Of a stretch of 20,000 bases of DNA, positions 2,331 to 18,896 are shown piece after piece. Every line of letters starts with the position of its first letter. The stretch's first letter is position 1. The notes beneath the pieces are model-generated. The model was not told the DNA's origin and ran no database searches. It was given only the letters and a program-made list of their open reading frames with translations. Made by a program: the position numbers and the translations under genes. The stretch is taken from IMG/VR virus record IMGVR_UViG_3300028129_000011; one strand, written 5' to 3'. The DNA comes from an uncultured virus (IMG/VR IMGVR_UViG_3300028129_000011) (lineage: Duplodnaviria; Heunggongvirae; Uroviricota; Caudoviricetes).

Positions 2331-3812
2331 ATGAGTTATAGAAATCCACAACAAGTAATAGATACGCAAACAGGTCAACATTATAGAAATTTACAAAATG
2401 TTATATCCAGTACGTTTGCAGGTGTAGCTCAAAGCTATAAAGCTGAGCAAGATAAATTAGAAAAAGAGCAAGAAGCAAGAGAAGCTAGAAATAAAGCAAT
2501 AGTAGATTTCAATCAAAAGCAAGAAGACGCTATGATGAGTAGTGTCGCGAAGTTAAAAGCCAATAACCCTACATTAGATACATCGTCTATATACGATATG
2601 ATTGATATGTATAGTGATATTAAAAACGCTATAGATTTGGGAACTATAACTGACAAAGAAGAGCTTAGAAAAATGAGAGAGCAATTAGCTCAAATAAAAT
2701 CTATACCTGACGGCTTAAATACTTCTCTAGTTGGTTTTGGTGCGTTATCTGAAGATTTTACTGAGTACATGGCTAAAGCTGGCAAAAAAGGTGGTTTAGA
2801 TTTAAAATCAGCAGATACTACATTGTTAAATCACTTAAATGTTTTCTTAAATAAAAGAAAAGGAGAAAGAAAGTTTCAAACTCAGTTTGATGAAAACGGT
2901 AATATGCGAACTGGTATATTTTTAAAATCAAGTGAAGAGAGTGATGAGGGTAAATTCTACACTAAAGATGAGCTAGTTTCTTATATGGATGGTGTTACAG
3001 GTGGTTTACCAGCAATACCAGATGATACTGAAGCTTCGGAAGAACTAATGAGTAATGTTTTTGGTATAGATCCAATTACTAAAAAAAGAACTATGCCTAC
3101 ACCAGGTATTGTAGATAAAATTAATGTTAGACAAAGAGATGGTAGCATTAAAGTTGAAGAAAGAATAAACGAAGAAAAATTAAAAGAAAAATTAAAACCT
3201 ATTGCTTTAGGTAATGTTTCTTCTTGGGGTGACAATGGTATAGTGTCTTTTTATAACAACATGTTAAAATCAGGTGAACTTTTAAAAGATAAAGACGGTA
3301 AAGAAATTAAAGTTTTAACAACTGAAAATATAGATGAAGATACGAAAAATAAAATAACAGATTTGTATCTAAACAAGTTTATAAAAGACAAAGGTATATT
3401 AAACTATGGCAAAACCTTAGAAAAAGATACAACAACAAAAAGACCTAACATTTATTCAGGTAGTAATAATAAATCTAATAAAAAAGTAGAAATAGACACT
3501 TCTTTTATAGATGAAATGGATATAACTTTAGAAGGTGAATTTCCAGGTGCGGCTGTTGATTTTGACAAAATAGAGCTAACTTTAAAGAAAGAAGGTTTTA
3601 GAGTACTTAGTGAAAGATTGGTTGATGGCAAGAAGGAGTTAGATATAACAAAATCAGTTAAAGGTGCTGATAATTCTGTAACTATAACTGAAGATATGAC
3701 TCCTAAACAAATAAAAGACTTGTTGAAACTTGTTGAAACAGGATCATTACCTAAAGAAGATAAAGAACCGACAGGTTCAGAGGACGATCCATTTATCTAC
3801 AAACCACAATAA
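2331..3812 (+). CDS. Probable internal virion / ejection protein (medium)
   Basis: 493-aa helical, charged ORF with an N-terminal coiled coil. Function is inferred only from its position between the small and giant ejection-type genes. Confidence 0.55.
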   Translation: MSYRNPQQVIDTQTGQHYRNLQNVISSTFAGVAQSYKAEQDKLEKEQEAREARNKAIVDFNQKQEDAMMSSVAKLKANNPTLDTSSIYDMIDMYSDIKNAIDLGTITDKEELRKMREQLAQIKSIPDGLNTSLVGFGALSEDFTEYMAKAGKKGGLDLKSADTTLLNHLNVFLNKRKGERKFQTQFDENGNMRTGIFLKSSEESDEGKFYTKDELVSYMDGVTGGLPAIPDDTEASEELMSNVFGIDPITKKRTMPTPGIVDKINVRQRDGSIKVEERINEEKLKEKLKPIALGNVSSWGDNGIVSFYNNMLKSGELLKDKDGKEIKVLTTENIDEDTKNKITDLYLNKFIKDKGILNYGKTLEKDTTTKRPNIYSGSNNKSNKKVEIDTSFIDEMDITLEGEFPGAAVDFDKIELTLKKEGFRVLSERLVDGKKELDITKSVKGADNSVTITEDMTPKQIKDLLKLVETGSLPKEDKEPTGSEDDPFIYKPQ

Positions 3813-3825
3813 AAAATAATATAAT

Positions 3826-6800
3826 ATGCCTAAGTATAAATTATCAAGCGGTAAATTCATTATAGTTAAAGATGATGATGTTCAAGACTTCTTAAACTCA
3901 GATATCGGTAAAGGAGCTACGGTTGTAGAAGAAATAGCCACTCCTGTAGTTACAGAAGATTATGTTAAAACACCAGGTATAGACTTTGATGATTACTTAA
4001 AACCAGCAAAGACCGAAGACTCTGCGAGTGCGGATCCAACTGTGGAGTCAAAAGATATGGGATCCAAATTGGTAGATGGTTCTTTGGAATTCAAAGAATC
4101 TAATCAACAAGCTTTATTAAACTATAAAAAAAGAACTGGCAAAGAAGCAGGTTCTATAATGGATTTATCAGATGAAGACTATGAAACTCCTTTAGATAAA
4201 TTTAAACCAGTAGACTATAATAAAGTAGTAATAAATGGTAGAAAAAAAATAAAAAACTACGCTGACGAAAGAGTAAAGCTTGCGAAAAAATTAGAAATAT
4301 TTTCTTATGATCAATTTGGAGCAACAAACGAAGCTGTAGATTATGTTAAGCAAGGTTTAAAATCTTTTGATAAAAAAGTTGATAACGAAGTTAAAAATCT
4401 AGAATTAAACGACGAGTTTAAATTAAGAAACGATGCTTTAAATCAATTAATTAAAGACACTGGTAACACACAAGCTACAGGAGAAGCTGTTAAGGATGTA
4501 GGTAGTGAATTTAATGTTTTAAATGTATTTAGAGGTGCTAGTTACTATAAAGACATAGAAGCTGATGAAGTTATTTCCTTAAACGATGAAGTAGAGCAGA
4601 GCGTTTTAGATAAGTTAGATAAAAGATCTTTGCAGAAATTAGCTGGTGGTTTCTACACGTTACAAGAAAAAGAAAACTTGATAAATGAGTCTAAGTCAAG
4701 TATAATAGATACTAGAATAAAAACTTATAAAGATAATTTAGATAAAGCTACGTTTAACGTAGAGTCTAAATTAGATAATAATAAAAAGAAACTTAAAGAG
4801 CTTGAAAGTTTTATTAATCCTTTAGAAAATAGAGAAGACTTAACTCAAGAAGAAGCTAATAACTATAACGATGCTGTTAATCAATATAATAGCATATTAG
4901 CTGAATCTAAAAATATAGTAAAAGAGTATAATGAATACAAAACTATTGAAACTCAAAAAGTAGAATCATTAGAAGGTGAATTTGGTTTCGATGTAGCTAA
5001 AGGCGTTTTAAGAAACAACTTTAAGCTTACAGACAAAGTAGAGAAGTTTAGAGAAAAATATTCCGGTGAAGGTTTCTGGAATGGCGCCGCGGATATATTA
5101 GGAGGTGAAGTTCTTCAAGGTTTTTATCAGACAATGAAAAAAGCAACTGTCGGTAGTGTTACTTGGGCTATGGCAAACAGCGCTGATTTGCTCACGGATC
5201 AAGACTCTTATTCAGCTTATGATGCTTTTAGTGACGTTATTAATAACTGGTCAAATAAAACATTGGTACCTAGATCAACTAGTGAGGAATTTGATATAAC
5301 AAAAAAAGAAGGTGGCTTTAAAGATTTCTCAGCTAGAAATTATGCTAAGCTAGGTGCTTCTATGGTTCCATTTACAGGTTACTTAATAAGCGAAGTAAGG
5401 AAAGGTAAATACAATAACATAAAACAAGCTATAGGTGATACGTATTTAAAGTTTGGAAATAAAGGTAAAGTATTAAAAGACGCTTCACAAACCCTAAAAA
5501 ACAACATCATAATGGTTGATGCTACTTTTAGAGCAACTATACTTGACAACCAAAAAGAAGCTGAAGCTAAAGGTTTTAACGGCTTAAAAGCAAACTCTTA
5601 TGCAACTACAGTTTCAGCTACTGAAGCTATGGTACAAATGATAATGCCAGATACACAGTTTTTAAAAGGTGTTAAAGGTAAAGCTATTTTAGATAATTTC
5701 ACTGGCTCTTTGAAAAAAGCAGCTAATAAACAAGCTGTGATATCAGCTGGTAAAGAATTTACTACTAACGTGTTAAAAGAATACGGTGAGGAAGAGATAA
5801 ATGCTTTTGCTAACATGATAACAGACGTTTCTTATGGATTAGCACTACCAAAAACTAGTGACTTTTTAAACGAACAAATACAACTAACAGCTGGTACTTT
5901 GATGCTAAGTGGTAGCATGGGTTTAGTAGGTGCTGCTAATACTTATAGTAATCAAAAAAAGCTTGTATACAATCAAATACACGAAAACATAAACTCTTTA
6001 AACACTCACTTATTAGAGATAGCTAGAAAATCTAAAAACATTGAAGTCAAAGATGATATAGTAAAAGCTATGAAATTTGCTAAAGATGTTAGTCAAGCTA
6101 TTGAATCTTCACCTGAAAACGTTACTTCTGATCAAATAGATCTTTTAATAAAAAAGAAAAACCTTATCGATAAAAAATCTAAGACAGATAAATCTTTTCA
6201 TGTAGCTATAGATAAAAGCATTAACGAGATTAATGAAAAAATAGAAGCTGGCTCAATAAGGGAAAACGTAAGAAATAAGTTTGACGCGGATATAAAAAAT
6301 ATAAGTAAATCTTTAAATTCATCTGGAACAAGAGTAGATGAAACTATAGTTTTTGAAGATTCTGATGGTAGAACAGCAGCAGAAAAAATGAAAGAAAAGC
6401 TTTTAGAGCTTGGTAAGTCTGAAGAATTTGCTGAAGCAAATAAAAACTCATATGGTGCTTTTATAGTGGATAAAAACGGTAAAGAGTTGTTAATAGTAAA
6501 CAAAGAAGCTGCTGTTGCTAATAGTGTTGTGTCTACTGGTCAACATGAGTTTTTACATAAACTACTAAGATCTAGGTTTAAAAACAAACCTGAAGAGCTA
6601 AAAAAAGCTGCTAACTTATTAAAAGAGGAAGTAGAATCTATAAACAAAAAAACAGGTCAAGGTTATGATTTTATTAGTAGATTAAAAACATACGAAGAAG
6701 ATTTAGCTGAAGGAAATCTTAGCGAAAGCGGTTATTATGAAGAGGTGTTTACTCTTTTTTCAGAAGCTTTATCTAGTAAAGATATAAAAATAAATAAAAG

Positions 6801-9800
6801 CACTATAGGAAAAATTGGAGATTTTATTAGACAATCTTTTCAAAACGCTGGGTTTAAGAAAATAAAATTCAACAACGCTGACGACGTTAAAAACTTTATA
6901 ATAGACTACAACAAAGCTTATTCCAAAGGTAAGATTAAAGGTTCTTTAGCTGGTAAAACTAAAAGCTTTGCTATAGGATCTTCTATTTCTCTTAGTAAAT
7001 CAGTTGAGCAGATACAAAAAGAAATTATAGCTTTAGAAGAACAATATGATGAGCAAACTATAGACTACTATGATTTCGAAAATAGAATGGATATACTTGA
7101 AGCTGAATTAGAGAAAGCTAAAAAAGCTCCTAAGGAAACTCAAGTAAAACCTGTTAAAAAATCTACTCAATTAAGCGTACAAGATATAAAAGATCAAATA
7201 GAACAACTAGATGAAGATTTATATAGCGGAGTTATAGATGACATTGACTACGAGCAAAGATTAGATTTATTAGAAGAGAGATTAAAGCAAGCTGAATTAA
7301 GAGCAACTAATCCTAAAAAAGCTCAAGAGAATCAAGATAAGATAGTAAAACAATCTATAGATAAATTCAAAAAAGAAGTATCTGAAGAAACAGTATCTGA
7401 TAAAAACAAGAAAATAGCTAAAATAAACGAAGATATAGCTAATGAAATGTTGGAACTAGGTGCTAATCAAGTTTCAGATATAGAAGATCCTATTAAGCGT
7501 AAACAAATAATAGATAAGTTAGGTAGGAATAACTTAGGTGCTGTAACTAATTTGACAAAAAGAGCAGCAGCTGCAGGTAAAAACCTAGCTATAGATGATA
7601 ACCTTAAAATAGGTTATGATGAGTTTTTCTCTGGATTTAGTGAAGAATTATCAGCATTGATAAAATCATATAAGGTTGAAGTTGACGGTAAGAGAGTACC
7701 TTTTGGTGCTTACATGAATAAAAACTTACCTTTAAGATATGGACAGATATTAGATAATGCTTTAAAAGGTAGAATAGAAGGTTCTAAGAGCTTAGATGTT
7801 CAAGCTGGAGAGAAAGGTTATGCTGGATCTATAATAGCTGATAGAGCAGCAGATTTCGATGCTACTACTAGTGCTGAAATGGGATTACCTGTTGATGATC
7901 TTATAGATGTAACTACTTTTAGAAAAGTTAAAGATAAAGTAGAAACAATAAAAGAAAGTATAGATTTAACAGATGTTGACTTAGATAACTTAACTTATAG
8001 AAAAATACAAGATGATTATTCTGGTCAAGTTGGTGCTGAGTTAATTGGTATGTGGGATAGAAACGCTAAACCTGAAGCTGATCAAGATAGAAATGATTTC
8101 CAAAAACTAGCAGAAAGAATAGAAGGTACTAGAACTTTAAACTACGGTAAAGATACTGGTGGTGAAGCTGAGGTTAGAGCTATGCAAGGTTTATTCTTAG
8201 ACTACAATGATGCTGTTAAGTTTATAAAAACTATGCCTGAATTCAATGTTGCTCCTTTTGAGACAACTATCGATGAACAAGGTAGATCTATAGATTTAAC
8301 TGAAGATGCTAGAGGTTACAGTACAGGTATATCAAATAAATTACTTAAAGAGTTTTACGAACCATACATTGATCCAAAATCTAAAAGTTCTGACAAAGGC
8401 ACTAAAAGTAGAGCAATAACGTCTCCTTCAGGTAGAGGTAAAGGTAAAACATCTCAAGTAGCTAAAGTATATAGATTAAAACCTGAGTACAGAGGTAAAA
8501 TATCTAGACAAACAGTACAAGAGTTACAAAAAAAAATAGGTATAACACCTGCTGGTGAAGCATTCATACCTATGAAAGGTAAAAATAGAACTGAATTTGG
8601 TACTGCTTTACAAGGTTTAACTAAAATGTATGCTACTAACGTAGCTAATACTATAATTAGAAAGAAAATTGTAGAAGAAGGTCTTAGCTCTGAAAGAAAA
8701 ACACCTGAAAAACTATTAGCTGACATAGGTGGTGGTAAATCTAGTATTATGTTTAGTAGAGCAGCTGACCTAGGTTTAAATGTTCCTTTTGAAACACCTC
8801 AGTTAGGTAATGTATTGTTTTCTAAAAAAGCTAGAGCCGAATACGAAAGTGTACTTAGAAATAAGAGACCTGATTTAGAAAATCCAAGAGAACAAGTAGA
8901 TGAGTTAATAAAGTGGGGTGATGCTTTAAATGTTAAAGAAAATAAGAAGGCTAAGTACAAGAAGTTAGCGTTATATTATATGGCTAACGGCTTTGTTATA
9001 ATGCCAGAAGATGGTTACAAGGTTGTAGAAGCTATTAGGTTGGGTGAAGCAAATAAGGTAGATCCATACACTGTTAAAAACCCTAACGAACTTATAGAGA
9101 GATATCAAGCTAAAACTAAAGGCGCTAGAATAAATCCAGACGAAGTTGAACAGTTTTCAAATAAAAAAGCTTTAAAAGAAGGCGTTGTTGTATATGATGT
9201 TGAAGATTCTAAGAAAGGGCAGTTAGCTTTAAGGAAAGTTATTGACACTAATTGGGGTTATAAAGCAAACCCTTGGTGCTTAGCGGCTAGATCTGACGGG
9301 GCTGATTACATAGAAACCAACGAAGCAGAATCTAGAGAAGAAGCTGAAGAAATGATCGCTGATTACAAAGAAGCAGGGTATCATGCTAAAATAGAAGGTA
9401 CTTACACACATAAAGGTAAAGAGATTTTTGAGATAGCAGTATCTGAAATTGATAAAGACCCTGAAAAGCTGAGTCAAGCTTTTAAACTGTGGAAAAGTTA
9501 TAATGAAGAAGGTAATGGTTTTAAAATAGCTTTTCAAAACGGTAAATTAATTTCTTTTAGAGATGGTGACAAAATGGAATGGTGGGATAGAATGGATAGA
9601 GGTTCTGTAAATATACCTTTGAAACCGTTAGATAAAAGCAAAAAACAACACTTAAAAAACTTAAATGAAGAAAAACAAATGGATCCTGAAACAGGTGAAG
9701 TTTTTATTTCAAAAAGAATTACAGAAAACACTATAGATGGTGGTGCTATCGAAAAGATAACTTATGTTGCAAATCCTGATACTAGAGAGCTTATAATAAA

Positions 9801-12800
9801 CGAAAGGTCGAAAAAATTAGAAATAAAAGAAAATATTCTTGAAACTGAAGAACAAAAGTACGATGAAAATGGCCGTTTAATTGAAGAGATAAATACTATT
9901 GCTGATGAAAGTAAGGGAACACACGTTGAGACTACAATAAACACAAGATATGATAAAAAAGGTGATGTTACTGGTACATACAAAACTATTAATACCTTAG
10001 GTGAAAAGTTTTACCAATCTGAAAGAATATTTAACGACGAAAACAATGTCTATATTAAACTCATAGAGTTAGCTGATGCAAAAGTGTTTTTTGAAAATAG
10101 TGTTTATTTATACAAAGAATCTAACGGAAAAGTAATTGAAGAAATAGATAACAGAAAGAAGTATGGTTTTGATGAAAATGAATTTTTAGATAGTGTTGTT
10201 AATGTCTCATTTAGTACTTCAGCTTTAGCCGATGTTTTAATAACTGACATATTAAAAAGAGAATATGGTTACAATAAAAAAGGTAAACTACCTAAAATCA
10301 AAGGTAATAAAAAAGAATTAAATAAAATAATAACAAATCTTTTAAATATAAACAACTTTGAAGATGAAGAAGCTTTCAACGATTACGTAGAAACATTACT
10401 TCCAATGCAAAGAGACATTGTTAAACGTGTTTTTGAAGGTAGATATTGGATGTTTGGATTGTATTCTGATGAAAAAGCTGCAAACAACGGTATAAAGTAT
10501 GAAAAACTTATTAGAAAAGCTATAAAAGAGTCTGGGGTCAAAGGTGTCAGCGTGGAATTTAGTGAAGGTGGTTTTAGTAGTGGAACTGATTTAGTTTTAA
10601 CTATTAAAGGTAAAAATATAAACATAGAATTAAAGCTGAATAGAAAAGCTCAATTTGGTAGTTTTATGGTGAAGCAAGAAGGAGATAAATATATTTATAC
10701 TTCTGGTATATCTGGTTTACAACAAAGTTTACCTGACTTGCACGAAGAGATACAAAACCAACTTAAAAGTGAAAAATATAAAAAAGCTGTAAAAGAGTAT
10801 ATTAACAAAGGTAGAAGCCTAGCTCAAAAACTTGGTGTATATTTCAAATATAACGAAGATACTAATACTCTAAAAACAACTAAACAGGTTTTTGAACAGT
10901 TAGCTACTGATGGGTATTTAAAGAAAACAAACTTAACTATAAGAAAAGACTCTAAGGGTAATTTGTTAAACGAAGACTTAATAAACACGCTGTACAATAA
11001 CAAGGATGTATACTATATAGAAATAGGTGGTAAAGGTCTTTATTATCTAAAAGAAAACAAAGATAATCTAAATATACCAAAATTGGAAGGTAATACTAGT
11101 CTAGTTATAAGAAATACTTATAATCAAATAGGTAAAACTGGAATATATCAATCATTGTTGAGAGGTTTTATTAAGTTAGATTCAGATATAGTTGATTCTA
11201 ATATAAGTTTTGCTGATGTAGATAGTATTAAAGAAAATTTACAAGATATTTCCGGTACTAGTTTTAGTAAAGGTAGACTCGACGCTGAGTTTAACAAAAT
11301 AATAGAAAACAAAACTGGTATATTAGCGACTGACGAAATATCTGAGGTTAAAGCTAAAATGATAGCTAATAACAAAAGAAGTTTTAATATATTTATTCCT
11401 CCTTCAGCTGAAGATTTCGTAGGTTTATTATATGCTACTTTAGGTAAAGGCAAGGTTGGAGAGAAGCAAATGATGTTTTATGACAGAACATTAATCAGAC
11501 CTTACGCTAGAGCTATGCAAGCTATAACTAGAGACAGAATTGATCTAGGTAAATCTTTTAATAAAATTAGAAAGCAATTCAACGCTACTCCTAAAGATCT
11601 TAAAAAGAAAGTACCTAACAGTTTATTTACTAAAGAGCAAGCGGTAAGAATTTACATATGGGATAGTATAGGAAAAGAGGTTCCAGGTTTAAACGTGGAA
11701 GAAGTTAATGAATTAGCTAACTATGTAGCTGATAACAAAGAGCTTAGGGATTTTGCTGATCAAGTTATGAGGTTAAACCCGGGTTCTGCATATACTTCAC
11801 CAGGTGAAACTTGGACAACTGGTACTATTACAACAGACTTGCTTGAAACCCTAAACGAATCAAGAAGAGCTAAGCATTTAGGTAGGTGGCAACAAAATGT
11901 TGATGAAATATTCTCTAAAGAAAACTTAAACAAATTAGAAGCTGCTTACGGTACTAGTTATAGAAAAGCAATGGAGAACATGCTTACTAGAATGAAAACT
12001 GGTAGAAATAGAACGTATGGTACGGATTCACAAACAGCAAAATGGATTGACTGGGTTAATGGATCTGTTGGTACTATAATGTTCTTGAACGCTAGATCTG
12101 CTGTACTTCAAACAATATCTGCAGCTAACTTTATAAACTTTGGTGATAACAATGTATTTGCCGCTGGTAAAGCATTTGCTAATCAAAAACAATACTGGTC
12201 AGATTTTGCTTTTTTAATGAACTCAGATTATTTAGTAGAAAGAAGAGATTCGTTAAAGATAAATATAAACGAAGCTGATATTGCTGAAGCTGCTCAAAAG
12301 AAAGGTGCTAGAGGTGCTATAAACTATTTATTAAAACTAGGATTTACACCTACTAAATTCGCTGATAGCTTTGCTATAGCTTCCGGTGGTGCTACTTTTT
12401 ATAGAAATAGATTAAATGCTTTAATAAAGAAAGGTATGGATCCTGCTGCTGCAGAAAAAGCTGCAATGAGGGATTTTATAGAAAAATCAGAGGAATCTCA
12501 GCAGTCAAGTAGACCTGATAAAATAAGTCAGGAGCAAGCGGGTCCATTAGGGCGTGTTATATTAGCTTTTGCGAATACACCAGCACAATATGCTAGAATC
12601 ATAAAAAAAGCCGCTAGTGACCTTAAAAACAGACGAGGCAGTGATAAAGAGAACATATCTAAGATTATATATTATGGTTTAGCTCAAAACTTACTATTTA
12701 ATGCGCTTCAACAAGCTATATTTGCAGTTGCTTTTGGTGATGAAGAAGATGAAGGTGCATTAGACGATAAAAAGTTAAATATAGTTAACGGTATGTTAGA

Positions 12801-13305
12801 TGGTATTATTAGAGGTACTGGAGTTGGTGGTGCAATATTTACTGTAGTTAAAAACTCTGGTTTAAGAATATATAAAGAATCTAATAAGAAAAGACCTAAC
12901 TACGAATCAGTTGTTGATGAAGCTTTAAAAATATCTCCACCTATATCATCAAAGATCTCTAAATTAAAATCCGCTGGTAGAACTTTCACTTGGGATGCTA
13001 AAGAAATAAAAGGTAAAGGATTAGATATAACAAACCCAGCTATTGGCGCTAGTGCTAAGATATTGTCTGCAGGTACTAACTTACCTTTAGATAGGGTTGT
13101 TAGAAAAATAGAAAACTTAAAAGCTGCATCTGACAGTGAACTAGAAACATACAAGCGTTTAGCTTTAGTGTTAGGTTGGGGTAAATGGGAGTTAGGTATT
13201 AAAGATGAAAAGTGGAAAGATCCAAATGCAAAACCTAAAATAAAAAATAATACAAGAAAAATAAAACAAAGAAAAATAAAACAAAGAAAAATAACAATAA
13301 GATAA
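3826..13305 (+). CDS. Giant polyvalent internal virion / ejection protein (3159 aa)
   Basis: Uninterrupted 9480-nt ORF. Gly/Ala-rich hydrophobic helices at about 5080-5950, an HExxH zincin motif, several internal cargo-like modules, and a helical C-terminal region (FIPPSAEDFVGLLY ... GGATFYRNR ... ESQQSSRPD ... LAFANTP) of the kind seen at the end of large podophage ejection proteins. Last gene before the lysis cassette. Confidence 0.75.
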   Translation: MPKYKLSSGKFIIVKDDDVQDFLNSDIGKGATVVEEIATPVVTEDYVKTPGIDFDDYLKPAKTEDSASADPTVESKDMGSKLVDGSLEFKESNQQALLNYKKRTGKEAGSIMDLSDEDYETPLDKFKPVDYNKVVINGRKKIKNYADERVKLAKKLEIFSYDQFGATNEAVDYVKQGLKSFDKKVDNEVKNLELNDEFKLRNDALNQLIKDTGNTQATGEAVKDVGSEFNVLNVFRGASYYKDIEADEVISLNDEVEQSVLDKLDKRSLQKLAGGFYTLQEKENLINESKSSIIDTRIKTYKDNLDKATFNVESKLDNNKKKLKELESFINPLENREDLTQEEANNYNDAVNQYNSILAESKNIVKEYNEYKTIETQKVESLEGEFGFDVAKGVLRNNFKLTDKVEKFREKYSGEGFWNGAADILGGEVLQGFYQTMKKATVGSVTWAMANSADLLTDQDSYSAYDAFSDVINNWSNKTLVPRSTSEEFDITKKEGGFKDFSARNYAKLGASMVPFTGYLISEVRKGKYNNIKQAIGDTYLKFGNKGKVLKDASQTLKNNIIMVDATFRATILDNQKEAEAKGFNGLKANSYATTVSATEAMVQMIMPDTQFLKGVKGKAILDNFTGSLKKAANKQAVISAGKEFTTNVLKEYGEEEINAFANMITDVSYGLALPKTSDFLNEQIQLTAGTLMLSGSMGLVGAANTYSNQKKLVYNQIHENINSLNTHLLEIARKSKNIEVKDDIVKAMKFAKDVSQAIESSPENVTSDQIDLLIKKKNLIDKKSKTDKSFHVAIDKSINEINEKIEAGSIRENVRNKFDADIKNISKSLNSSGTRVDETIVFEDSDGRTAAEKMKEKLLELGKSEEFAEANKNSYGAFIVDKNGKELLIVNKEAAVANSVVSTGQHEFLHKLLRSRFKNKPEELKKAANLLKEEVESINKKTGQGYDFISRLKTYEEDLAEGNLSESGYYEEVFTLFSEALSSKDIKINKSTIGKIGDFIRQSFQNAGFKKIKFNNADDVKNFIIDYNKAYSKGKIKGSLAGKTKSFAIGSSISLSKSVEQIQKEIIALEEQYDEQTIDYYDFENRMDILEAELEKAKKAPKETQVKPVKKSTQLSVQDIKDQIEQLDEDLYSGVIDDIDYEQRLDLLEERLKQAELRATNPKKAQENQDKIVKQSIDKFKKEVSEETVSDKNKKIAKINEDIANEMLELGANQVSDIEDPIKRKQIIDKLGRNNLGAVTNLTKRAAAAGKNLAIDDNLKIGYDEFFSGFSEELSALIKSYKVEVDGKRVPFGAYMNKNLPLRYGQILDNALKGRIEGSKSLDVQAGEKGYAGSIIADRAADFDATTSAEMGLPVDDLIDVTTFRKVKDKVETIKESIDLTDVDLDNLTYRKIQDDYSGQVGAELIGMWDRNAKPEADQDRNDFQKLAERIEGTRTLNYGKDTGGEAEVRAMQGLFLDYNDAVKFIKTMPEFNVAPFETTIDEQGRSIDLTEDARGYSTGISNKLLKEFYEPYIDPKSKSSDKGTKSRAITSPSGRGKGKTSQVAKVYRLKPEYRGKISRQTVQELQKKIGITPAGEAFIPMKGKNRTEFGTALQGLTKMYATNVANTIIRKKIVEEGLSSERKTPEKLLADIGGGKSSIMFSRAADLGLNVPFETPQLGNVLFSKKARAEYESVLRNKRPDLENPREQVDELIKWGDALNVKENKKAKYKKLALYYMANGFVIMPEDGYKVVEAIRLGEANKVDPYTVKNPNELIERYQAKTKGARINPDEVEQFSNKKALKEGVVVYDVEDSKKGQLALRKVIDTNWGYKANPWCLAARSDGADYIETNEAESREEAEEMIADYKEAGYHAKIEGTYTHKGKEIFEIAVSEIDKDPEKLSQAFKLWKSYNEEGNGFKIAFQNGKLISFRDGDKMEWWDRMDRGSVNIPLKPLDKSKKQHLKNLNEEKQMDPETGEVFISKRITENTIDGGAIEKITYVANPDTRELIINERSKKLEIKENILETEEQKYDENGRLIEEINTIADESKGTHVETTINTRYDKKGDVTGTYKTINTLGEKFYQSERIFNDENNVYIKLIELADAKVFFENSVYLYKESNGKVIEEIDNRKKYGFDENEFLDSVVNVSFSTSALADVLITDILKREYGYNKKGKLPKIKGNKKELNKIITNLLNINNFEDEEAFNDYVETLLPMQRDIVKRVFEGRYWMFGLYSDEKAANNGIKYEKLIRKAIKESGVKGVSVEFSEGGFSSGTDLVLTIKGKNINIELKLNRKAQFGSFMVKQEGDKYIYTSGISGLQQSLPDLHEEIQNQLKSEKYKKAVKEYINKGRSLAQKLGVYFKYNEDTNTLKTTKQVFEQLATDGYLKKTNLTIRKDSKGNLLNEDLINTLYNNKDVYYIEIGGKGLYYLKENKDNLNIPKLEGNTSLVIRNTYNQIGKTGIYQSLLRGFIKLDSDIVDSNISFADVDSIKENLQDISGTSFSKGRLDAEFNKIIENKTGILATDEISEVKAKMIANNKRSFNIFIPPSAEDFVGLLYATLGKGKVGEKQMMFYDRTLIRPYARAMQAITRDRIDLGKSFNKIRKQFNATPKDLKKKVPNSLFTKEQAVRIYIWDSIGKEVPGLNVEEVNELANYVADNKELRDFADQVMRLNPGSAYTSPGETWTTGTITTDLLETLNESRRAKHLGRWQQNVDEIFSKENLNKLEAAYGTSYRKAMENMLTRMKTGRNRTYGTDSQTAKWIDWVNGSVGTIMFLNARSAVLQTISAANFINFGDNNVFAAGKAFANQKQYWSDFAFLMNSDYLVERRDSLKININEADIAEAAQKKGARGAINYLLKLGFTPTKFADSFAIASGGATFYRNRLNALIKKGMDPAAAEKAAMRDFIEKSEESQQSSRPDKISQEQAGPLGRVILAFANTPAQYARIIKKAASDLKNRRGSDKENISKIIYYGLAQNLLFNALQQAIFAVAFGDEEDEGALDDKKLNIVNGMLDGIIRGTGVGGAIFTVVKNSGLRIYKESNKKRPNYESVVDEALKISPPISSKISKLKSAGRTFTWDAKEIKGKGLDITNPAIGASAKILSAGTNLPLDRVVRKIENLKAASDSELETYKRLALVLGWGKWELGIKDEKWKDPNAKPKIKNNTRKIKQRKIKQRKITIR
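4008..4065 (+). promoter_or_regulatory. Candidate programmed -1 ribosomal frameshift signal (A_AAG plus H-type pseudoknot)
   Basis: GCA_AAG at 4006-4011, then a 6-nt spacer ACCGAA. Stem 1 is GACTCTGC(G)AGT 4018-4029 paired with ACTGTGGAGTC 4039-4049. Loop GGATCC 4032-4037 can pair with GGATCC 4060-4065. The -1 frame is open to TAA at 4101-4103. Confidence 0.6.
6330..6940 (+). other. Zincin metallopeptidase (MPTase-like) domain within the giant protein
   Basis: GAF...LIVN...STGQHEFLH (HExxH at 6544-6558, H907/E908/H911), with a downstream YYEEVFTLFSE helix (6733-6765) that can supply the third Zn ligand. Boundaries approximate. Confidence 0.75.
7000..7293 (+). repeat. Two 40-aa acidic helical-hairpin repeats within the giant protein
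   Basis: SVEQIQKEIIALEEQYDEQTIDYYDFENRMDILEAELEKA (7000-7119) and SVQDIKDQIEQLDEDLYSGVIDDIDYEQRLDLLEERLKQA (7174-7293) align without gaps, 16/40 identical. Confidence 0.85.
7501..7820 (+). other. Sigma70 region-2-like segment within the giant protein
   Basis: IIDKLGRNNLGAVTNLTKR ... YDEFFSGFSEELSALIKSYK ... VPFGAYMNKNLPLRYGQIL ... SKSLDVQAGE follows the order and spacing of sigma regions 2.1, 2.2, 2.3-2.4 and the 3.2 SLD motif. Recognised by eye. Confidence 0.5.
10470..11250 (+). other. PD-(D/E)xK restriction-endonuclease-fold domain within the giant protein
   Basis: GIKYEKLI (E at 10501), GTDLVL (D at 10588), NIELK (E at 10627, K at 10633), then AQFGS and YYIEIGGKGLYYL (11011-11049). Confidence 0.7.
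13255..13299 (+). repeat. 15-bp tandem repeat encoding a basic C-terminal tail (RKIKQ)x2-RKITI
   Basis: agaaaaataaaacaa at 13255-13269 and 13270-13284, with a degenerate agaaaaataacaata at 13285-13299. Confidence 0.85.
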
Positions 13306-13309
13306 TGTT

Positions 13310-13768
13310 ATGAAATTAAAAGGTTGGGTTATAATAGCTTTGTTTGCAGGTTGGAATACTTTAAGAGTTTTTAGAAAAAAATTAGAAAAAATGTTTAAAA
13401 GATTAAAAAATATCTGGTCACGTAGTGATTCGCAACCTACAGAAATAACTTTATCTTTAGCGAATATATTTTTAACCCATGTTGCAATTGGTATTGAGTT
13501 TGGAGGTAATTATGTCTTTAGAGTGGTAATACTATTAAGTGGTATATATCAATTATATTGTGTATCAAAAGAAGAAATAAACTGTAGATTAAAAGCTTCG
13601 GTTTTTTCATTTGCAGTTTACTTAATTTCAACTGTTATTTATATTAAATCTATTGGACTTCCAACACCTACTCATTATGGGTGGTTAGTTCTTTGCTTTG
13701 CATCCTTCGGTAGTATGCGTCGATTAATATTAGAAAAAATACATAGACAAAAAGTAAATAATGGATAA
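13310..13768 (+). CDS. Multi-pass membrane protein, holin-like (alternative start at 13391)
   Basis: About four hydrophobic segments and a basic C-terminus. First gene of a tightly coupled cassette ending in a peptidoglycan peptidase. A second in-frame ATG at 13391 has an A-rich leader. Confidence 0.55.
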   Translation: MKLKGWVIIALFAGWNTLRVFRKKLEKMFKRLKNIWSRSDSQPTEITLSLANIFLTHVAIGIEFGGNYVFRVVILLSGIYQLYCVSKEEINCRLKASVFSFAVYLISTVIYIKSIGLPTPTHYGWLVLCFASFGSMRRLILEKIHRQKVNNG

Positions 13769-14072
13769 CATCACACAAATTATAATTACACTTGTAACAG
13801 TAGCTGGTTCAGCTGGAATATGGAAGTTCTTAGAAGCTCGCTTAAAAACAAAAGCAGAAAATAAAAAAATAGATTTACAAAACAACGACGGTATACAGTA
13901 TAGAGACGACTTAAAACATAGAGTAAAAAATCTTGAAGCTTTGCTTTCTGAGTCTAGTAATGATAAAGATGAACTACGTAATCAAGTTTTAGAACTGACA
14001 GCGGAAGTTAATGCTTTGCGTGTTAAAGTAGAGTTTCTTGAAAAAGAAAACGAACGCTTAAAAAATAAGTAA
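13761..14072 (+). CDS. Single-TM plus coiled-coil protein (holin/antiholin-like lysis accessory)
   Basis: N-terminal hydrophobic helix (ITQIIITLVTVAGSAGIWKFL) followed by a heptad coiled coil. Overlaps the upstream gene by 8 nt and is coupled to the endolysin through TAATG. Confidence 0.55.
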   Translation: MDNITQIIITLVTVAGSAGIWKFLEARLKTKAENKKIDLQNNDGIQYRDDLKHRVKNLEALLSESSNDKDELRNQVLELTAEVNALRVKVEFLEKENERLKNK

Positions 14073-14458
14073 TGAAAATAACAGAAAACTTTAATCTTAG
14101 TGAGTTTCAATGTAAGTGTGGTTGTGAGATGCCTTATACTGTTGAAAAAAATATAATTGAACTTGCTGATAATTTACAAATATTAAGAAATCACTTAAAC
14201 AAGCCTATAAATCCAACAAATGGCTTTAGATGCGCTACACATAATAAAAGTGTTGGAGGAGTTAAAAATTCTCAACATATATTAGGTAAAGCTGCGGATA
14301 TTAAAGTTAAAGATGTTTCTCCTAATGAAATAGCTGACGCTATAGAGTATTTAATGGAAAGTGGTAAATTTAAAATGGGTGGAGTTGGTAGATATAATAC
14401 ATTTACTCATGTAGATATACGTGGTAGTAAAGCTAGATGGAATAAAACTAAAAAATAA
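14072..14458 (+). CDS. Peptidase M15A-family (Peptidase_M15_3) Zn peptidase, probable endolysin
   Basis: NFNLSEFQCKCG N-terminus; GFRCATHNKSVGGVKNSQHILGKAADI (H-x6-D Zn ligands); FTHVDIR (third ligand); ARW end. Confidence 0.9.
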   Translation: MKITENFNLSEFQCKCGCEMPYTVEKNIIELADNLQILRNHLNKPINPTNGFRCATHNKSVGGVKNSQHILGKAADIKVKDVSPNEIADAIEYLMESGKFKMGGVGRYNTFTHVDIRGSKARWNKTKK

Positions 14459-14814: not shown

Positions 14815-16581
14815 TTAACCGTCACAGCTTAAACAGCTTTCATCCATAGCTTGTTGAGCTATATCTCCACGTAAAACACTTTCTGTTCTAGTATAATACA
14901 AAGTTTTAACACCTTTTTTCCAAGCTTCAAAATGAACTTTATTAATCCATTTAGGAGTAGCTTCTGATGGAAAAGCTAAATTTAAACTTACAGATTGATC
15001 AATATATTGTTGACGAATACCTGCTTGATTAACTAACTCTAACTGATTGATTTCTTTAAACGTTTTAAAAACATCTTTAACTTTATCATAATCAGTTTCT
15101 TTTAAATCAGGATTGTCAGATATTTTAGTTAATTTTCTATTAACATAACCCCAATTATCAAGTTCTTCAATATCTTGTATACTACCTCCGTCAGCTAATA
15201 TCTTGTCCCAAACCTGTTTAGTATTAATACCTATTTTTCTTAATACTTTAGTTAACTCTTTATTTTTTCTTATAAACGTCCCTTTGGCTGATTGTTCTGT
15301 GAAAACATTAGCAGCCCAAGGCTCAATCCCAGGAGAAACGTTACCAGATAATTTAGAGTTAGATACAGTAGGAGCAATCGCACGAAGATGAGTATTACGC
15401 ATGCCAGTACCCACACACCATAAAGGTTCTCCATAAATTTCAGCAAGATCCCTAGAAGCTCTTTCGCTTTCAATTTTGACCTGCGAAAAAATCTTCCTAG
15501 TTTCAAACTGCGCAAGTAAGCCTTCAAAAGGTATACCTCTTTCTTGGAGATATGTATGCCATCCAAGTACTCCCAAGCCCAAAGCACGCCCTTTTGTTGC
15601 TGATCTAACACTATTCTCGAAACCTCTAAGTCCTTTTGCTCTTTGTATAAATTCTTCCATAACACCATCAAGAAAGTAAATGGCGTCATATATAAGGTTA
15701 GTATCTTTCCATTCGTCATATTTTGCTAAATTTAATGATGATAAACAACATACAAAACTATGTGACTCATCTGTATGTAATGTAATCTCAGAACATATAT
15801 TTGTCATATGAACTTTTAATCCATTGTCTTTATATGCTTTTGGATTTGATTTATTAGTGTTTCCTTTAAATAATATATATGGCTCTCCAGTTGCTTTTCT
15901 TTTTCTAAGTAATTTACTCCACTTAGTTCTTGCTTCTGCATCTCCTTGTTCAAGTTTTCGCATAAACTTATCACCAATAACTGCACACTGGTGTAAATTA
16001 AGCGATTGTCTATTAACGTCGCCTTTAGGTTCTCTAATTTCAAGCCACTCTTCAAAATCGTCGTGCTCAATGTTAATATTAACCGATGCAGCTCCTCTTC
16101 TAACTGATCCTTGATTAGTTGCGAGGATTGTTGAGTCATATATTTTACAAAAGGGTACAACCCCGTCTGATGTTCCATTTCCTGTAATTTTAGCGCCGGC
16201 GGGTCTAATTTGATTAACTCCAATGCCAACTCCACCCCCGTGCTTAGCGAGTAGCATCATCTCTAAATTTTTACCACCTATATCTTGGATTGAGTCAGCA
16301 ACGTCGATACCAAAGCAACTAATAGGTAAGCCACGATCTGTACCAGTGTTGGAAAGTACCGGAGAAGCAAGGCAAAGCCAACCATTCCAGATATAATTAA
16401 AAAAGTTTTCAGCCATCTCTGGCTTATATAATCTTCGAGCAACTGTTTTAGCGACTCTTTTGTATGCCTCTTTCGGACTTTCGTCGTGATATAAATATCC
16501 CCCGGATATTGTCTTTTTGTATACGTCGTTATCACCCCACGAAGGAAAGTCTTCACCTTTAATCCATTCATTATTCCACAT
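14815..16581 (-). CDS. nrdA: Class I ribonucleotide reductase alpha subunit (compact, no ATP cone)
   Basis: LPISCF (redox Cys), HGGGVG, NQGSVRRGA, TNICSEI (N-C-E catalytic motif), VCCLSSLN, RALGLG, AIAPT, KTLYY (radical-relay tyrosines), C-terminal CLSCDG. Confidence 0.97.
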   Translation of the reverse strand: MWNNEWIKGEDFPSWGDNDVYKKTISGGYLYHDESPKEAYKRVAKTVARRLYKPEMAENFFNYIWNGWLCLASPVLSNTGTDRGLPISCFGIDVADSIQDIGGKNLEMMLLAKHGGGVGIGVNQIRPAGAKITGNGTSDGVVPFCKIYDSTILATNQGSVRRGAASVNINIEHDDFEEWLEIREPKGDVNRQSLNLHQCAVIGDKFMRKLEQGDAEARTKWSKLLRKRKATGEPYILFKGNTNKSNPKAYKDNGLKVHMTNICSEITLHTDESHSFVCCLSSLNLAKYDEWKDTNLIYDAIYFLDGVMEEFIQRAKGLRGFENSVRSATKGRALGLGVLGWHTYLQERGIPFEGLLAQFETRKIFSQVKIESERASRDLAEIYGEPLWCVGTGMRNTHLRAIAPTVSNSKLSGNVSPGIEPWAANVFTEQSAKGTFIRKNKELTKVLRKIGINTKQVWDKILADGGSIQDIEELDNWGYVNRKLTKISDNPDLKETDYDKVKDVFKTFKEINQLELVNQAGIRQQYIDQSVSLNLAFPSEATPKWINKVHFEAWKKGVKTLYYTRTESVLRGDIAQQAMDESCLSCDG

Positions 16582-16588
16582 ATTTTAA

Positions 16589-16963
16589 TTATTTTATTTG
16601 CCATCTTTTATTATACTTAGGCTCGTGTTTAAATTCTAATTCTATTTCTTTAATTAATCTTTCTTGTTTATTAGTAGTCTCTATAACTTCGTATGTCCAA
16701 AACTCTTTACAGTAGGCTTTTTTAAATTGACCTTTGTGAAAAGCTTTTGATTTATCGTAGCCAAAGTGTTCAGCTAATCTTCTTGGACCGTTAGTTGTTT
16801 CTCCAACATAAATAATTTCACCGGTCTCATCTTTAATTATATAAACTATTTCCATAGGAACAGGAAACTCTTTATTATGTAACTTCGCTCTTGCTTTTCT
16901 AACTGTAGCCCTTCTAGATTCTGTATTTACATAGCCATTATATGCATCGTGTATCTTTGTCAT
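16589..16963 (-). CDS. GIY-YIG endonuclease, probable free-standing homing endonuclease
   Basis: IVYII...IIYVGET, RRLAEH (catalytic Arg), IKEIEL (metal-binding Glu), PKYN, with a basic N-terminal extension. Ends 7 nt upstream of nrdA. Confidence 0.85.
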   Translation of the reverse strand: MTKIHDAYNGYVNTESRRATVRKARAKLHNKEFPVPMEIVYIIKDETGEIIYVGETTNGPRRLAEHFGYDKSKAFHKGQFKKAYCKEFWTYEVIETTNKQERLIKEIELEFKHEPKYNKRWQIK

Positions 16964-17225
16964 ATTTGTTTTTATAATTTTCTACTTCAATCCACTCAAT
17001 AGGATCTATAAACCATCCTCCTTCTATTTTTACTTCAAAGAAATTATTTACGTCTTGTGGTTTGTAGAAGATTTTATTGTTTTCAACTTTCCACATATGA
17101 CCGTAACCAGTTCTAATAAAGTTGTTGTTGTTAATTAAAGCTTTACTAATATCCTCGAAGCTTTTAACAATTACTGTTGGAAAATCTGTTATATCTTCTC
17201 CTTTGATCCAGTTTTCATTCCACAT
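16938..17225 (-). CDS. Hypothetical chimeric protein starting with a copy of the NrdA N-terminus
   Basis: 95 aa. Begins MWNENWIKGED-ITD-FP versus NrdA MWNNEWIKGED-FP; the remainder is unrelated to RNR. Overlaps the GIY-YIG gene by 26 nt. Confidence 0.65.
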   Translation of the reverse strand: MWNENWIKGEDITDFPTVIVKSFEDISKALINNNNFIRTGYGHMWKVENNKIFYKPQDVNNFFEVKIEGGWFIDPIEWIEVENYKNKYDKDTRCI

Positions 17226-17229
17226 ATTA

Positions 17230-17496
17230 TTATTTTAAAAAGTGAGTTATCCAGGCTATTAACCCATTTATATTTAAAGCTACTAAGTTCCATTGTTTCC
17301 TAGAGCTTGTTTGTATTATTACTAGTATAAATCCTACCATGTAAAGTTTTGGATCTATAGTCCATTGAGCAGCGATTAAAAAACCACTGCCCATATACCC
17401 TGCTCTAGTCGCTAATCTCTTCCAAGGAGTTAACCGCTTTTGCCTCACTAGCTTGTTTAGCAGCTTGTTCCTTAACTCTTTCGATCGCTTCATCAT
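17230..17496 (-). CDS. Small 2-3 TM membrane protein (true start possibly GTG at 17448)
   Basis: Hydrophobic segments AGYMGSGFLIAAQW, LYMVGFILVIIQ and WNLVALNINGLIAWI. The helix pattern is loosely PnuC/SemiSWEET-like. GTG at 17448 would reduce the overlap with the upstream gene. Confidence 0.6.
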   Translation of the reverse strand: MMKRSKELRNKLLNKLVRQKRLTPWKRLATRAGYMGSGFLIAAQWTIDPKLYMVGFILVIIQTSSRKQWNLVALNINGLIAWITHFLK

Positions 17497-17635
17497 AATC
17501 TGGCATTTGTTTAATTGTTTCTAATACACCTATAGCTATTGTAGCTGTCTGATTTAATTCACTTATTAGTTTTTGATTGATCAAACCCAAGGTTTCAATC
17601 TTATTCTTCATTTCAATTAGTGTCTGTTCTTTCAT
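17405..17635 (-). CDS. Hypothetical coiled-coil protein
   Basis: 76 aa. ATG lies 1 nt after the upstream stop; helical heptad pattern. Confidence 0.7.
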   Translation of the reverse strand: MKEQTLIEMKNKIETLGLINQKLISELNQTATIAIGVLETIKQMPDYDEAIERVKEQAAKQASEAKAVNSLEEISD

Positions 17636-17636
17636 G

Positions 17637-17894
17637 TTACAGTGATTTTAAGATTAGCATCATAATTGCTGGAGCGGTTGTGTATATAAAGTCAGCTATT
17701 TCACAGTTACCTTTACCCATAGCCTTGTCCCATATAAGCTCTTTTGCTGCAGCGATAGCTGCTACAATAACTAAAGCTATATCTCCTAATAATAAAAATC
17801 CTACAAAAGATAAAATAGTACCGTAAAAGAAATGCAGTAGTTTATCGTTAGGAATTTTATTTAATGTGCTAAATATTTGTTTAATTTTATTCAT
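17637..17894 (-). CDS. VanZ/YfiM-like small membrane protein
   Basis: PNDKLLHF ... AKELIWD ... G ... ADFIYT pattern (DK-x2-H, KE-x3-D, D) with three hydrophobic helices. Confidence 0.7.
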   Translation of the reverse strand: MNKIKQIFSTLNKIPNDKLLHFFYGTILSFVGFLLLGDIALVIVAAIAAAKELIWDKAMGKGNCEIADFIYTTAPAIMMLILKSL

Positions 17895-17912
17895 TTTTTT
17901 TGTTTTTAATTA

Positions 17913-18896
17913 TTACCAAATGTCTTCATAATCTTCATCTTCTCCAGCTTTTGAATAATCAGTCGGCCTAATAGCGAAAAAATCAGTATGAGTGACGCCC
18001 CCGGTAAGATGGTAAAACCAATCAAGATTAGCTGCTGCTTTCTCGTCATACGCGAAGTAGTTGCCCAAGTCGACATAACCAAGTTCCACAAGTTTTTCAT
18101 TTGTTCTCTTTTTTATAAAGTGTTTTAAATCATTAGCTGATATACCTTCTACATCACCCATCTCAAACATTTTGTCAATATAATTACATTCAAGCTCTAT
18201 CATTATTTCAGCAGCTTTAATTATATCTTTTCGACATAAATCTAGTAATTGATCGTTTTCTTCGCACATATGACGGAATAATTGACAACCCATTTTACTG
18301 TGTAATGACTCATCTCTTACAGACCACTTCATTTGCTGTCCAATACCTTTAAGTAAGTTCCTAAGTTGAAAAGAATACAGTATTGCAAATGCAGAATAAA
18401 GACTTACTCCTTCCGCAAACGCTGAAAATACAGCTAGTGATCTACCGATACCTACTTGACTTTCGCCATCATAAGCAACTAAATTTTCAAACCTAGCAGC
18501 AGTTGCTGGCTCGTGTAGGAATGCTTCAAAGTCCATTAACTCTGGAGCCGCAGTTTCTAATGTTTCATTTAAGTAACTATAAGCAACAGCGTGAACTGTT
18601 TCGTTACCACCAAAAGCCATAGCCATTTGTTGTATTTCATATTTAGGAAACCAATTAACTACGTTTTGTGTCCAGTAATCACTAACAGCACATTCTGTTT
18701 GTGTGAAACCTAATAGTATATTACCTACTAAGTTTTTTTCTTCATAAGTTAATCTTTCATTCCAATCTTTTATATCGCTTTGCATCGATATTTCTGTGTG
18801 TAACCAGTGAGCTTGCTGTATTGGCAACCAACCTTCGTTGTAATATACAGGGTACTCAAAAGGTTTATAAGCTACTCTTTTATCAAATAATCCCAT
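17913..18896 (-). CDS. nrdB: Class I ribonucleotide reductase beta subunit
   Basis: YKPFEYP, HWLHTEI, metal ligands E68, E99/H102, E162, E196/H199 (RDESLH), radical-site Tyr106, C-terminal HTDFFAIRPTDY. Confidence 0.97.
   Translation of the reverse strand: MGLFDKRVAYKPFEYPVYYNEGWLPIQQAHWLHTEISMQSDIKDWNERLTYEEKNLVGNILLGFTQTECAVSDYWTQNVVNWFPKYEIQQMAMAFGGNETVHAVAYSYLNETLETAAPELMDFEAFLHEPATAARFENLVAYDGESQVGIGRSLAVFSAFAEGVSLYSAFAILYSFQLRNLLKGIGQQMKWSVRDESLHSKMGCQLFRHMCEENDQLLDLCRKDIIKAAEIMIELECNYIDKMFEMGDVEGISANDLKHFIKKRTNEKLVELGYVDLGNYFAYDEKAAANLDWFYHLTGGVTHTDFFAIRPTDYSKAGEDEDYEDIW

Follow-up and report, generated by a model that had tools for sequence, protein, structure and literature searches.

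Whether a very long phage gene encodes one protein or two is the question raised by the 5′ end of a giant ORF in IMGVR_UViG_3300028129_000011, an IMG/VR record of an uncultured virus of the Caudoviricetes. The stretch of DNA analyzed here (hereafter the window) is 20,000 nucleotides long, and the ORF, which is read on the plus strand in what we call the zero frame, occupies positions 3826–13305 (3159 codons). Our analysis indicates that the 5′ part of this presumed virion-protein gene very probably carries a programmed −1 ribosomal frameshift cassette, the elements of which all lie on the plus strand. Comparison with related sequences shows that the shift site, its spacing from the downstream structure and a covarying pseudoknot are conserved and that the peptide encoded in the −1 frame is under selection. 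The mechanism itself is familiar in type; what is new is the gene context and the product. The cassette is real and apparently undescribed; no description of it was found in the full-text literature on phage and flavobacterial frameshifts, subscription journals being outside this coverage.

The proposed mechanism is drawn from the anatomy of the site and from established −1 frameshifting. A ribosome at codon 62 (AAG, 4009–4011) would be held up by an H-type pseudoknot starting 6 nt downstream, and in a fraction of passages the tRNA-Lys would re-pair on AAA (4008–4010), after which translation would run for 30 codons in the −1 frame and stop at TAA (4101–4103). The gene would have two products, the 3159-aa protein and a 92-aa protein composed of the first 62 residues and a basic, Cys-rich tail ending in RYGIQIGRWFFG. 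Such a shift at A_AAG with an H-type pseudoknot, yielding the 92-aa product, had been put forward from the letters of the sequence alone (hereafter the original prediction), and the comparative evidence described below supports it.

Anatomy of the cassette in the window

The −1 frame is closed 5′ of the shift site by a TGA at 3990–3992, contains no ATG, GTG or TTG, and is closed again by the TAA at 4101–4103. The slippery heptamer A_GCA_AAG lies at 4005–4011, with GCA AAG (4006–4011) as the in-frame codons 61 and 62. Its tetramer core, A_AAG (4008–4011), is in the zero frame at codon 62 of 3159, and AAG is the sole codon of the heptamer that can re-pair in the −1 frame (in the A site, where it becomes AAA). 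A 6-nt spacer (4012–4017) is followed by the 5′ arm of stem 1, GACUCUGCGAGU (4018–4029); by the 5′ arm of stem 2, GGAUCC (4032–4037), which sits within the loop of stem 1; by the 3′ arm of stem 1, ACUGUGGAGUC (4039–4049); by the 10-nt loop 3, AAAAGAUAUG (4050–4059; 7–30 nt among relatives); and by the 3′ arm of stem 2, again GGAUCC (4060–4065). Loop 1 is GC and loop 2 is A4038. Stem 1 is supported by the minimum-energy fold and covariation, and stem 2 by covariation and duplex energy. The minimum-energy fold of 4018–4049 alone is stem 1, with 11 bp, G4026 bulged and −11.1 kcal/mol, and the GGAUCC/GGAUCC hexamer duplex has −8.4 kcal/mol. The layout drawn in the original prediction, from GCA_AAG through the 6-nt spacer and the 11-bp stem 1 to stem 2 and the loops, is thus confirmed at each position. 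The tail encoded in the −1 frame, DRRLCECGSNCGVKRYGIQIGRWFFGIQRI, takes up 30 codons (4011–4100) and is followed by the TAA; its most conserved part, RYGIQIGRWFFG (4053–4088), is predicted to form a β-hairpin.

The locally GC-rich patch with rare codons that first drew attention to the site was also recovered, since 4018–4065 has 52% G+C compared with 31% for the giant gene and contains 2 of the 12 GCG codons and 1 of the 11 GTG codons found in the whole gene. Among the 26 in-frame A_AAG sites of the gene, the codon-62 site ranks first both in the length of its −1 tail (30 codons, against a median of 4.5) and in the stability of the fold in the 60 nt on its 3′ side. A reader could have chosen the site for those features, and comparison with relatives was therefore the real test, which the site passed. 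A slippery site in the zero frame, a stimulatory structure near 5–9 nt downstream and a conserved open −1 frame, the marks of a frameshift cassette, are all found here. An Rfam cmscan of 3850–4250 gave a single sub-threshold match located elsewhere in the stretch (20.7 bits vs a gathering score of 50).

Conservation of the peptide encoded in the −1 frame

A back-translated form of the −1 motif YG[IV]QIGxWF matched 27 loci in viral contigs, where chance would give roughly 1 (a rough figure based on an assumed collection size). At 25 of the 27 loci, there is a short closed −1 ORF at approximately codon 50–140 of a long ORF in the frame one base downstream, which is the giant zero frame; L098 and L102 are apparent chance matches. 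The Arg before the Tyr is present in 19 of the 27 sequences and is written with six codons (AGA, AGG, CGT, CGA, CGG and CGC), and the zero-frame residue at the same position varies (e.g., G, E, A or V). F or I and the G after WF are also kept, though the search pattern left them free, and Y, G, G, F and G of RYGIQIGRWFFG are invariant or almost so. The layout of the −1 peptide is a Cys-rich part, then RYGIQIGRWFFG, and then a stop within a few codons. When a profile of the tail was run on 68 distinct giant-gene 5′ ends, 28 matched with E < 0.01; every one of these matches lay in the −1 frame, with none comparable in frames 0 or +1, in line with the expectation that a conserved −1 peptide should be found in homologs.

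Nucleotide differences were then counted by codon position in 12 related pairs picked by their similarity further downstream. Within the cassette, the differences at zero-frame positions 1, 2 and 3 were 66, 107 and 75, as against 266, 131 and 491 downstream (chi-square 99.8 between the two). Zero-frame position 2 is the third position of the −1 frame, and the excess there is therefore a signature of selection on the −1 frame. These results support the view that the −1 peptide is under purifying selection and better conserved than the zero frame, as judged from sequence comparison. On the same grounds, the recurrent zero-frame motif of the giant proteins (..DA.V.P.. ..VD[TG]S[LS]E) can be explained as largely the shadow of the −1 peptide in the overlapping frame.

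A search with the zero-frame motif DSASADPTVES, written in any codons, gave only six viral loci, along with seven from metagenomes, and five of the viral ones are from other phages. In these five, neither the first 60 aa nor the sequence further downstream can be aligned with the window, yet GCAAAG, the two stems and the −1 peptide are preserved with approximately 90% identity at the DNA level. As a separate observation, zero-frame SPVGGFFG(E/G)E, which is similar to the WFFG of the −1 tail, occurs just 5′ of the slip site in L003 (A_GTA_AAG), P0004, P0005 and P0009.

Slippery sites and their spacing in relatives

We collected 61 distinct versions of the cassette from public viral and metagenome contigs. 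An in-frame slippery site is present in 60 of them, shortly 3′ of the point at which the −1 frame opens, and it is of several types. G_GGA_AAG is the commonest (19 cassettes), followed by A_GCA_AAG (10, including the window), A_GTA_AAG (8), A_AAA_AAG (5), G_GAA_AAG (4) and A_AAT_TTT (4), and the remainder are related T_TTT or A_AAN forms. Exchange of one slippery type for another at the same place is what is predicted for a functional shift site. In an unbiased set of 35 family loci, a strong canonical heptamer was found within a 13-codon window in 19 loci (3.1% expected), and N_NNA_AAG was found in 25 (8.5% expected).

The distance to the downstream structure is similarly constrained. A stem 1 of 5–11 bp begins 4–7 nt 3′ of the heptamer in 54 of 60 cassettes, with 28 different starts of the 5′ arm, and the spacer in these 54 measures 6 nt in 34, 5 nt in 15, 7 nt in 4 and 4 nt in 1. 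By looser criteria, the cassette is present in at least 37 of the 68 giant genes, a set chosen by C-terminal motifs. We looked among the homologs for a missing site or pseudoknot and for random −1 stops, and none of these outcomes occurred.

Conservation and covariation of the pseudoknot

Across cassettes, the 66 nt after the site have a mean fold energy of −16.9 kcal/mol (mean z = −1.11), compared with −7.3 kcal/mol (mean z = −0.16) for control segments taken 300 nt further on. The pseudoknot itself was examined in a MAFFT alignment of 20 sequences including the window, in which one row (L030) is misplaced by a single column, an error that works against the structure. Paired cells amounted to 96.3% vs 85.3% in shuffled alignments, and the covariation score was 0.472 vs 0.249, neither value being reached in 500 shuffles. 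Two-sided changes were found in seven pairs of the pseudoknot, and slid controls were paired at only 20–53%. The two stems of the original prediction therefore both covary.

Stem 1 is better supported in its lower nine pairs, where four of the six basal pairs show two-sided changes; the upper three pairs are weaker (75% paired vs 62.5% in shuffles), and the middle one of them is broken in 9 of 20 sequences. Stem 2, the third helix of the alignment, is 98.3% paired, with two-sided changes at pairs 34–67 and 35–66. Its variants change together in the two arms, as in GGAUCC/GGAUCC, GGAUGC/GCAUCC, GGGUGC/GCACCC, GGACAC/GUGUCC, GAGUGC/GCACUC, GGAGAC/GUCUCC, GGGUGU/ACACCC and GACUGC/GCAGUC. When loops and downstream arms were swapped among 32 representatives, the stem 2 score fell from 12.12 to 9.34, and none of 5000 permutations reached the observed value. 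A second subclass of 11 sequences was 88.0% paired vs 81.9% in shuffles (0 of 500), and its stem 2 3′ arm lies 11 nt before the Tyr codon. Between the subclasses, this arm is displaced by 11–15 nt relative to the peptide motif, and both are kept; the displacement shows that RNA pairing and peptide are separate constraints.

Two other structures were tried and rejected. The hairpin TCCAAA/TTTGGA, which had been suggested to compete with stem 2 and tune efficiency, fell away, as its pairing (79.2%) was practically that of shuffled alignments (79.1%), no two-sided change was seen and 14 of 20 sequences have a broken middle pair. For the outer helices of the minimum-energy fold (4021–4029 with 4068–4076), pairing was 60.6% vs 59.4% in shuffles.

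The predicted short product

Tails in the relatives are 29–51 codons long (median 34), and the predicted products have 65–141 aa (median 83.5). G, R, S, C, F and K are abundant in the tails (G 16%, R+K 19%, C 8% and F+Y+W 14%), a composition that we take to resemble that of membrane-active β-hairpin peptides. Pfam searches with 60 tails gave only scattered matches with E values of 0.02 or worse, and tblastn of the 36-aa −1 ORF against cultured phages gave only five chance-level matches (E of approximately 4–5). AlphaFold modeled the tail alone as a β-hairpin (RYGIQI / WFFGIQ) with low confidence (pLDDT 60.6). For a 96-aa database protein of the same layout, it gave a folded N-domain (pLDDT 81–89), a disordered linker and the hairpin (pLDDT 74–79).

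The N-terminal modules located 5′ of the cassette, 30–60 aa long, fall into six or more unrelated kinds in different phages. Examples are MPKYKL..FL..P.A, MFxFxGxxYSLExV, MEELEKIVQRMIDAGESE and the repeated YTKSFEDF and NGYNG types, and the counterpart in the window is 3826–4011. When 1.84 billion proteins were searched with a profile, 35 short ones (58–131 aa) emerged in which the tail stands at the C terminus behind such modules, with the junction exactly at the slip site in some and a few codons later in others. Each of the 10 short proteins that were checked (10/10) occurs on a single contig (nine singleton clusters and one of two members), and the contigs are mostly short. Given this single-contig occurrence, we read the 35 in-frame proteins as indel variants or errors, a reading that is ambiguous. 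In P0035 and P0040, the tail motif runs in frame into more giant-protein-like sequence; either the tail is part of the main frame in certain phages, or indels are present in these contigs.

Our best guess is that the short protein is an accessory factor that carries the N-terminal “address” of the giant protein and whose hairpin tail binds a conserved partner or the membrane in assembly or ejection. The roles offered in the original prediction, a limit on synthesis of the giant protein and a chaperone or packaging adaptor, are speculative. A more far-reaching idea, which we regard as rather doubtful, is that the cassette represents a portable recoding module together with a new class of small phage proteins that act on the envelope or tether the giant protein. 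This idea is based on the occurrence of at least six kinds of N-module before one conserved unit, and on island DNA that is approximately 90% identical between flanks that cannot be aligned. Such a class would combine a swappable N-terminal address, a disordered linker and a cationic, Cys-rich, aromatic β-hairpin; its targets could be the host envelope, at the time of genome ejection or of lysis, or the giant protein, which it would tether in the capsid.

Alternative explanations

Several observations weigh against a programmed frameshift. The pseudoknot-free fold of 4006–4103 has a z of only −1.93, with 10 of 200 shuffles as good or better, and it pairs GGAUCC/GGAUCC in a long hairpin that replaces stem 1. 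The heptamer of the window, A_GCA_AAG, is non-canonical, and since the tRNA-Ala in the P site cannot re-pair, the efficiency may be low. The cassette was not seen in approximately 31 of the 68 giant genes. Several of the sequence sets were gathered through −1-frame patterns, which biases simple conservation counts; the 68-gene set, chosen by C-terminal motifs, and the 12-pair test are free of this bias. The sequences are related and dual-coding, and shuffle controls leave the relatedness in. The cassette set also leaves out the DNA of the closest homologs, P0003 (86%), P0004 and P0014; a back-translated pattern from MDLSDEDYETPLDKFKP, searched for that DNA, had no match in viral or metagenome contigs. 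Finally, the fusion of N-module and tail in the 35 short proteins could sometimes come from DNA indel variants rather than from ribosomes.

This last point leads to the view that the second frame is reached through an indel in the nucleic acid, either by RNA-polymerase slippage or as DNA variants in the phage population. It would account for the 35 short proteins, several of which are fused exactly at the slip site, and for the runs of A9–A10 at the equivalent place in the cultured phages Gundel_1, phi38:1 and Panino, in the last of which the N-terminal part and the giant-gene body stand in different frames. The window, however, has only three A's, and three A's are too few for polymerase slippage. 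A heptamer followed by a 4–7-nt spacer and a pseudoknot is the layout of ribosomal frameshifting and would be purposeless for polymerase slippage, and the varying junctions and single-contig occurrence of all 10 short proteins checked fit assembly errors or rare variants. The window stretch is moreover identical in the seawater runs compared: it is indexed in 21 seawater metagenome runs, the source possibly among them, and is unchanged in whole contigs of the three that were compared. We consider this explanation very unlikely. If, on the other hand, the pseudoknot acted purely at the RNA level, as a translation brake or a stabilizer of the giant mRNA, the −1 ORF would never be translated, and its conservation would be a by-product of the zero-frame sequence and of stems that are themselves conserved with covariation and that the tail coding sequence partly overlaps. 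Yet the best-conserved −1 codons (RYGIQIGRWFFG) lie mainly outside the stems, the Arg is kept across both of its codon families (AGR and CGN), differences fall on third positions of the −1 frame, and the −1 stop always comes within a few codons. An in-frame slippery site is also strongly enriched just 5′, and the 3′ arm of stem 2 moves by 11–15 nt against the peptide between subclasses while both are kept, so that a purely RNA-level role appears very unlikely.

The conservation of the short ORF would equally be expected of a separate small gene with its own initiation. No ATG, GTG or TTG precedes the Tyr codon of the motif in any of 60 −1 ORFs (0/60, a raw count uncorrected for composition), which makes independent initiation unlikely, and the −1 frame opens a median of only three codons before the slip codon in relatives; we give such a gene very little credence. 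There is, lastly, chance: a G+C-rich patch in an A+T-rich gene may fold and lack −1 stops, the best of 26 A_AAG sites could be chosen, and the plain fold has a z of only −1.93. The conservation across 61 distinct cassettes refutes this explanation, to which we attach next to no probability. A programmed −1 ribosomal frameshift is the reading that we retain.

Comparison with known frameshift systems

Bacterial shift sites include A_AAG, G_GGA_AAG and Z_ZZN tetranucleotides, and the −1 shift in copA gives the 70-aa CopA(Z) in place of 834 aa (Atkins et al. 2016, PMC5009743). The same review describes IS3-family insertion sequences, which share with the cassette an A_AAG slip codon, a short spacer, an H-type pseudoknot and bacterial translation (PMC5009743). 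The IS3 shift joins two ORFs so that a longer transposase is made, whereas the shift in the cassette would end translation early. The cassette, moreover, lies in a phage structural gene with no transposase, no sequence relation to IS3 and no orfA/orfB pair.

The G/GT tail assembly chaperone of phage lambda, which has many counterparts in other phages, is similar in that it belongs to the structural module of a phage and has a shared N terminus, and its slip site G_GGA_AAG is identical to that of 19 of the 61 cassettes; the product ratio is presumably fixed in both. The lambda shift occurs close to the 3′ end of a small gene located 5′ of the tape-measure gene, lengthens the protein and is not known to need a pseudoknot. 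The cassette, by contrast, lies at approximately codon 60 of genes of 2000–3400 codons, would truncate the product, includes a pseudoknot and occurs in podophage relatives. The lambda-type arrangement of two small overlapping ORFs before a tape-measure gene, with an extended product, thus differs from a shift at codon 62 of 3159 that would truncate. To our knowledge, well-supported programmed frameshifts are rare in tailed phages outside the tail-chaperone and a few capsid genes.

In Escherichia coli dnaX (tau/gamma) and copA, too, a −1 shift at an early or internal position is promptly followed by a stop and gives a short product with the same N terminus. These are cellular genes, and their post-shift tails have only a few residues, whereas the tail of the cassette has 29–51 residues and is its most conserved part. 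Cardiovirus 2B* and flavivirus NS1′ are likewise reported to arise from a −1 shift within a very long ORF, which gives a short trans-frame product and less downstream synthesis. They differ in coming from eukaryotic RNA viruses with other stimulators and in having no sequence relation to the cassette.

Backed by 61 sequences with slip sites of several types, a fixed spacing and a pseudoknot that covaries, the cassette would be among the better comparative cases of a bacterial-type pseudoknot-stimulated shift. It points to a hidden conserved small protein, missed by gene callers, in abundant uncultured marine phages of Flavobacteriia, and it indicates that the annotation of the giant genes is incomplete.

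Cultured relatives

Possible counterparts were found in three cultured phages. Tenacibaculum phage Gundel_1 gp074 (L123, 24539–24800) has an A10 run near codon 50, and Cellulophaga phage phi38:1 gp101 (L124, 9423–9650) has one near codon 33; each run is followed by a short −1 ORF with an aromatic, Gly-rich end (..YHFYFGW.. and ..FGWFRL*, the asterisk denoting the stop). In Maribacter phage Panino (L125, approximately 19935–20200), an A9 run is present, the N-terminal part (MEDELMSFEQF...) and the annotated body are in different frames, and the frame that is −1 to the giant-gene body ends in ..GGGWFFGISRKSD*. The frame break in Panino may reflect a sequence error in the homopolymer, slippage of the polymerase or genuine recoding. 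The tails of the three phages score poorly with the cassette tail profile, and the resemblance is only suggestive of a distant, homologous version of the cassette; polymerase slippage is a live alternative in all three. Their A-runs and aromatic −1 tails open the question to bench testing. The giant gene of Panino is annotated as “tRNA methyltransferase,” with its start at an internal codon.

The giant gene, its protein and its neighborhood

The giant protein is probably a virion-internal or structural protein. It has 17 protein homologs, and at least 560 related stretches were found in viral contigs, of which 80 were kept. Scans of the protein against Pfam and PHROGs gave no match, and neither did a PDB sequence search, tblastn of its conserved C-terminal 679 aa against cultured phages or blastn of 3600–5600 against cultured phages; the description of the protein as nuclease-bearing in the original prediction found no support in this analysis.

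Evidence for a structural role comes from gene order. The gene at 145–1545 has a crAss-type muzzle C-terminal domain in a domain scan, and among cultured phages its product is closest, at 32–34% identity, to structural proteins from Cellulophaga, Tenacibaculum, Maribacter and Flavobacterium phages. Those phages share with the window the gene order of an approximately 200-aa protein, an approximately 500-aa protein and a giant “structural protein,” and the position of the giant gene matches that of the giant structural protein genes of Gundel_1 and phi38:1. On the 3′ side of the giant gene, 13310–14458 and 14815–18896 jointly hold a lysis module (an unknown ORF of 152 aa, a holin-like one of 103 aa and an endolysin of the M15 peptidase type) and, on the opposite strand, the large and small subunits of a class I ribonucleotide reductase. 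Neither a tape-measure family nor a transposase was matched among the nine larger ORFs scanned with Pfam and PHROGs, and the context is that of a phage structural and lysis module.

In the seawater runs, short contigs from other phages align only at 4000–4069, which gives a lead. The giant protein also contains HEFLH (6544–6558; aa 907–911), which has the form HExxH as in zinc metalloproteases and has no Pfam family match; its H907, E908 and H911 are invariant in 13 aligned giant proteins.

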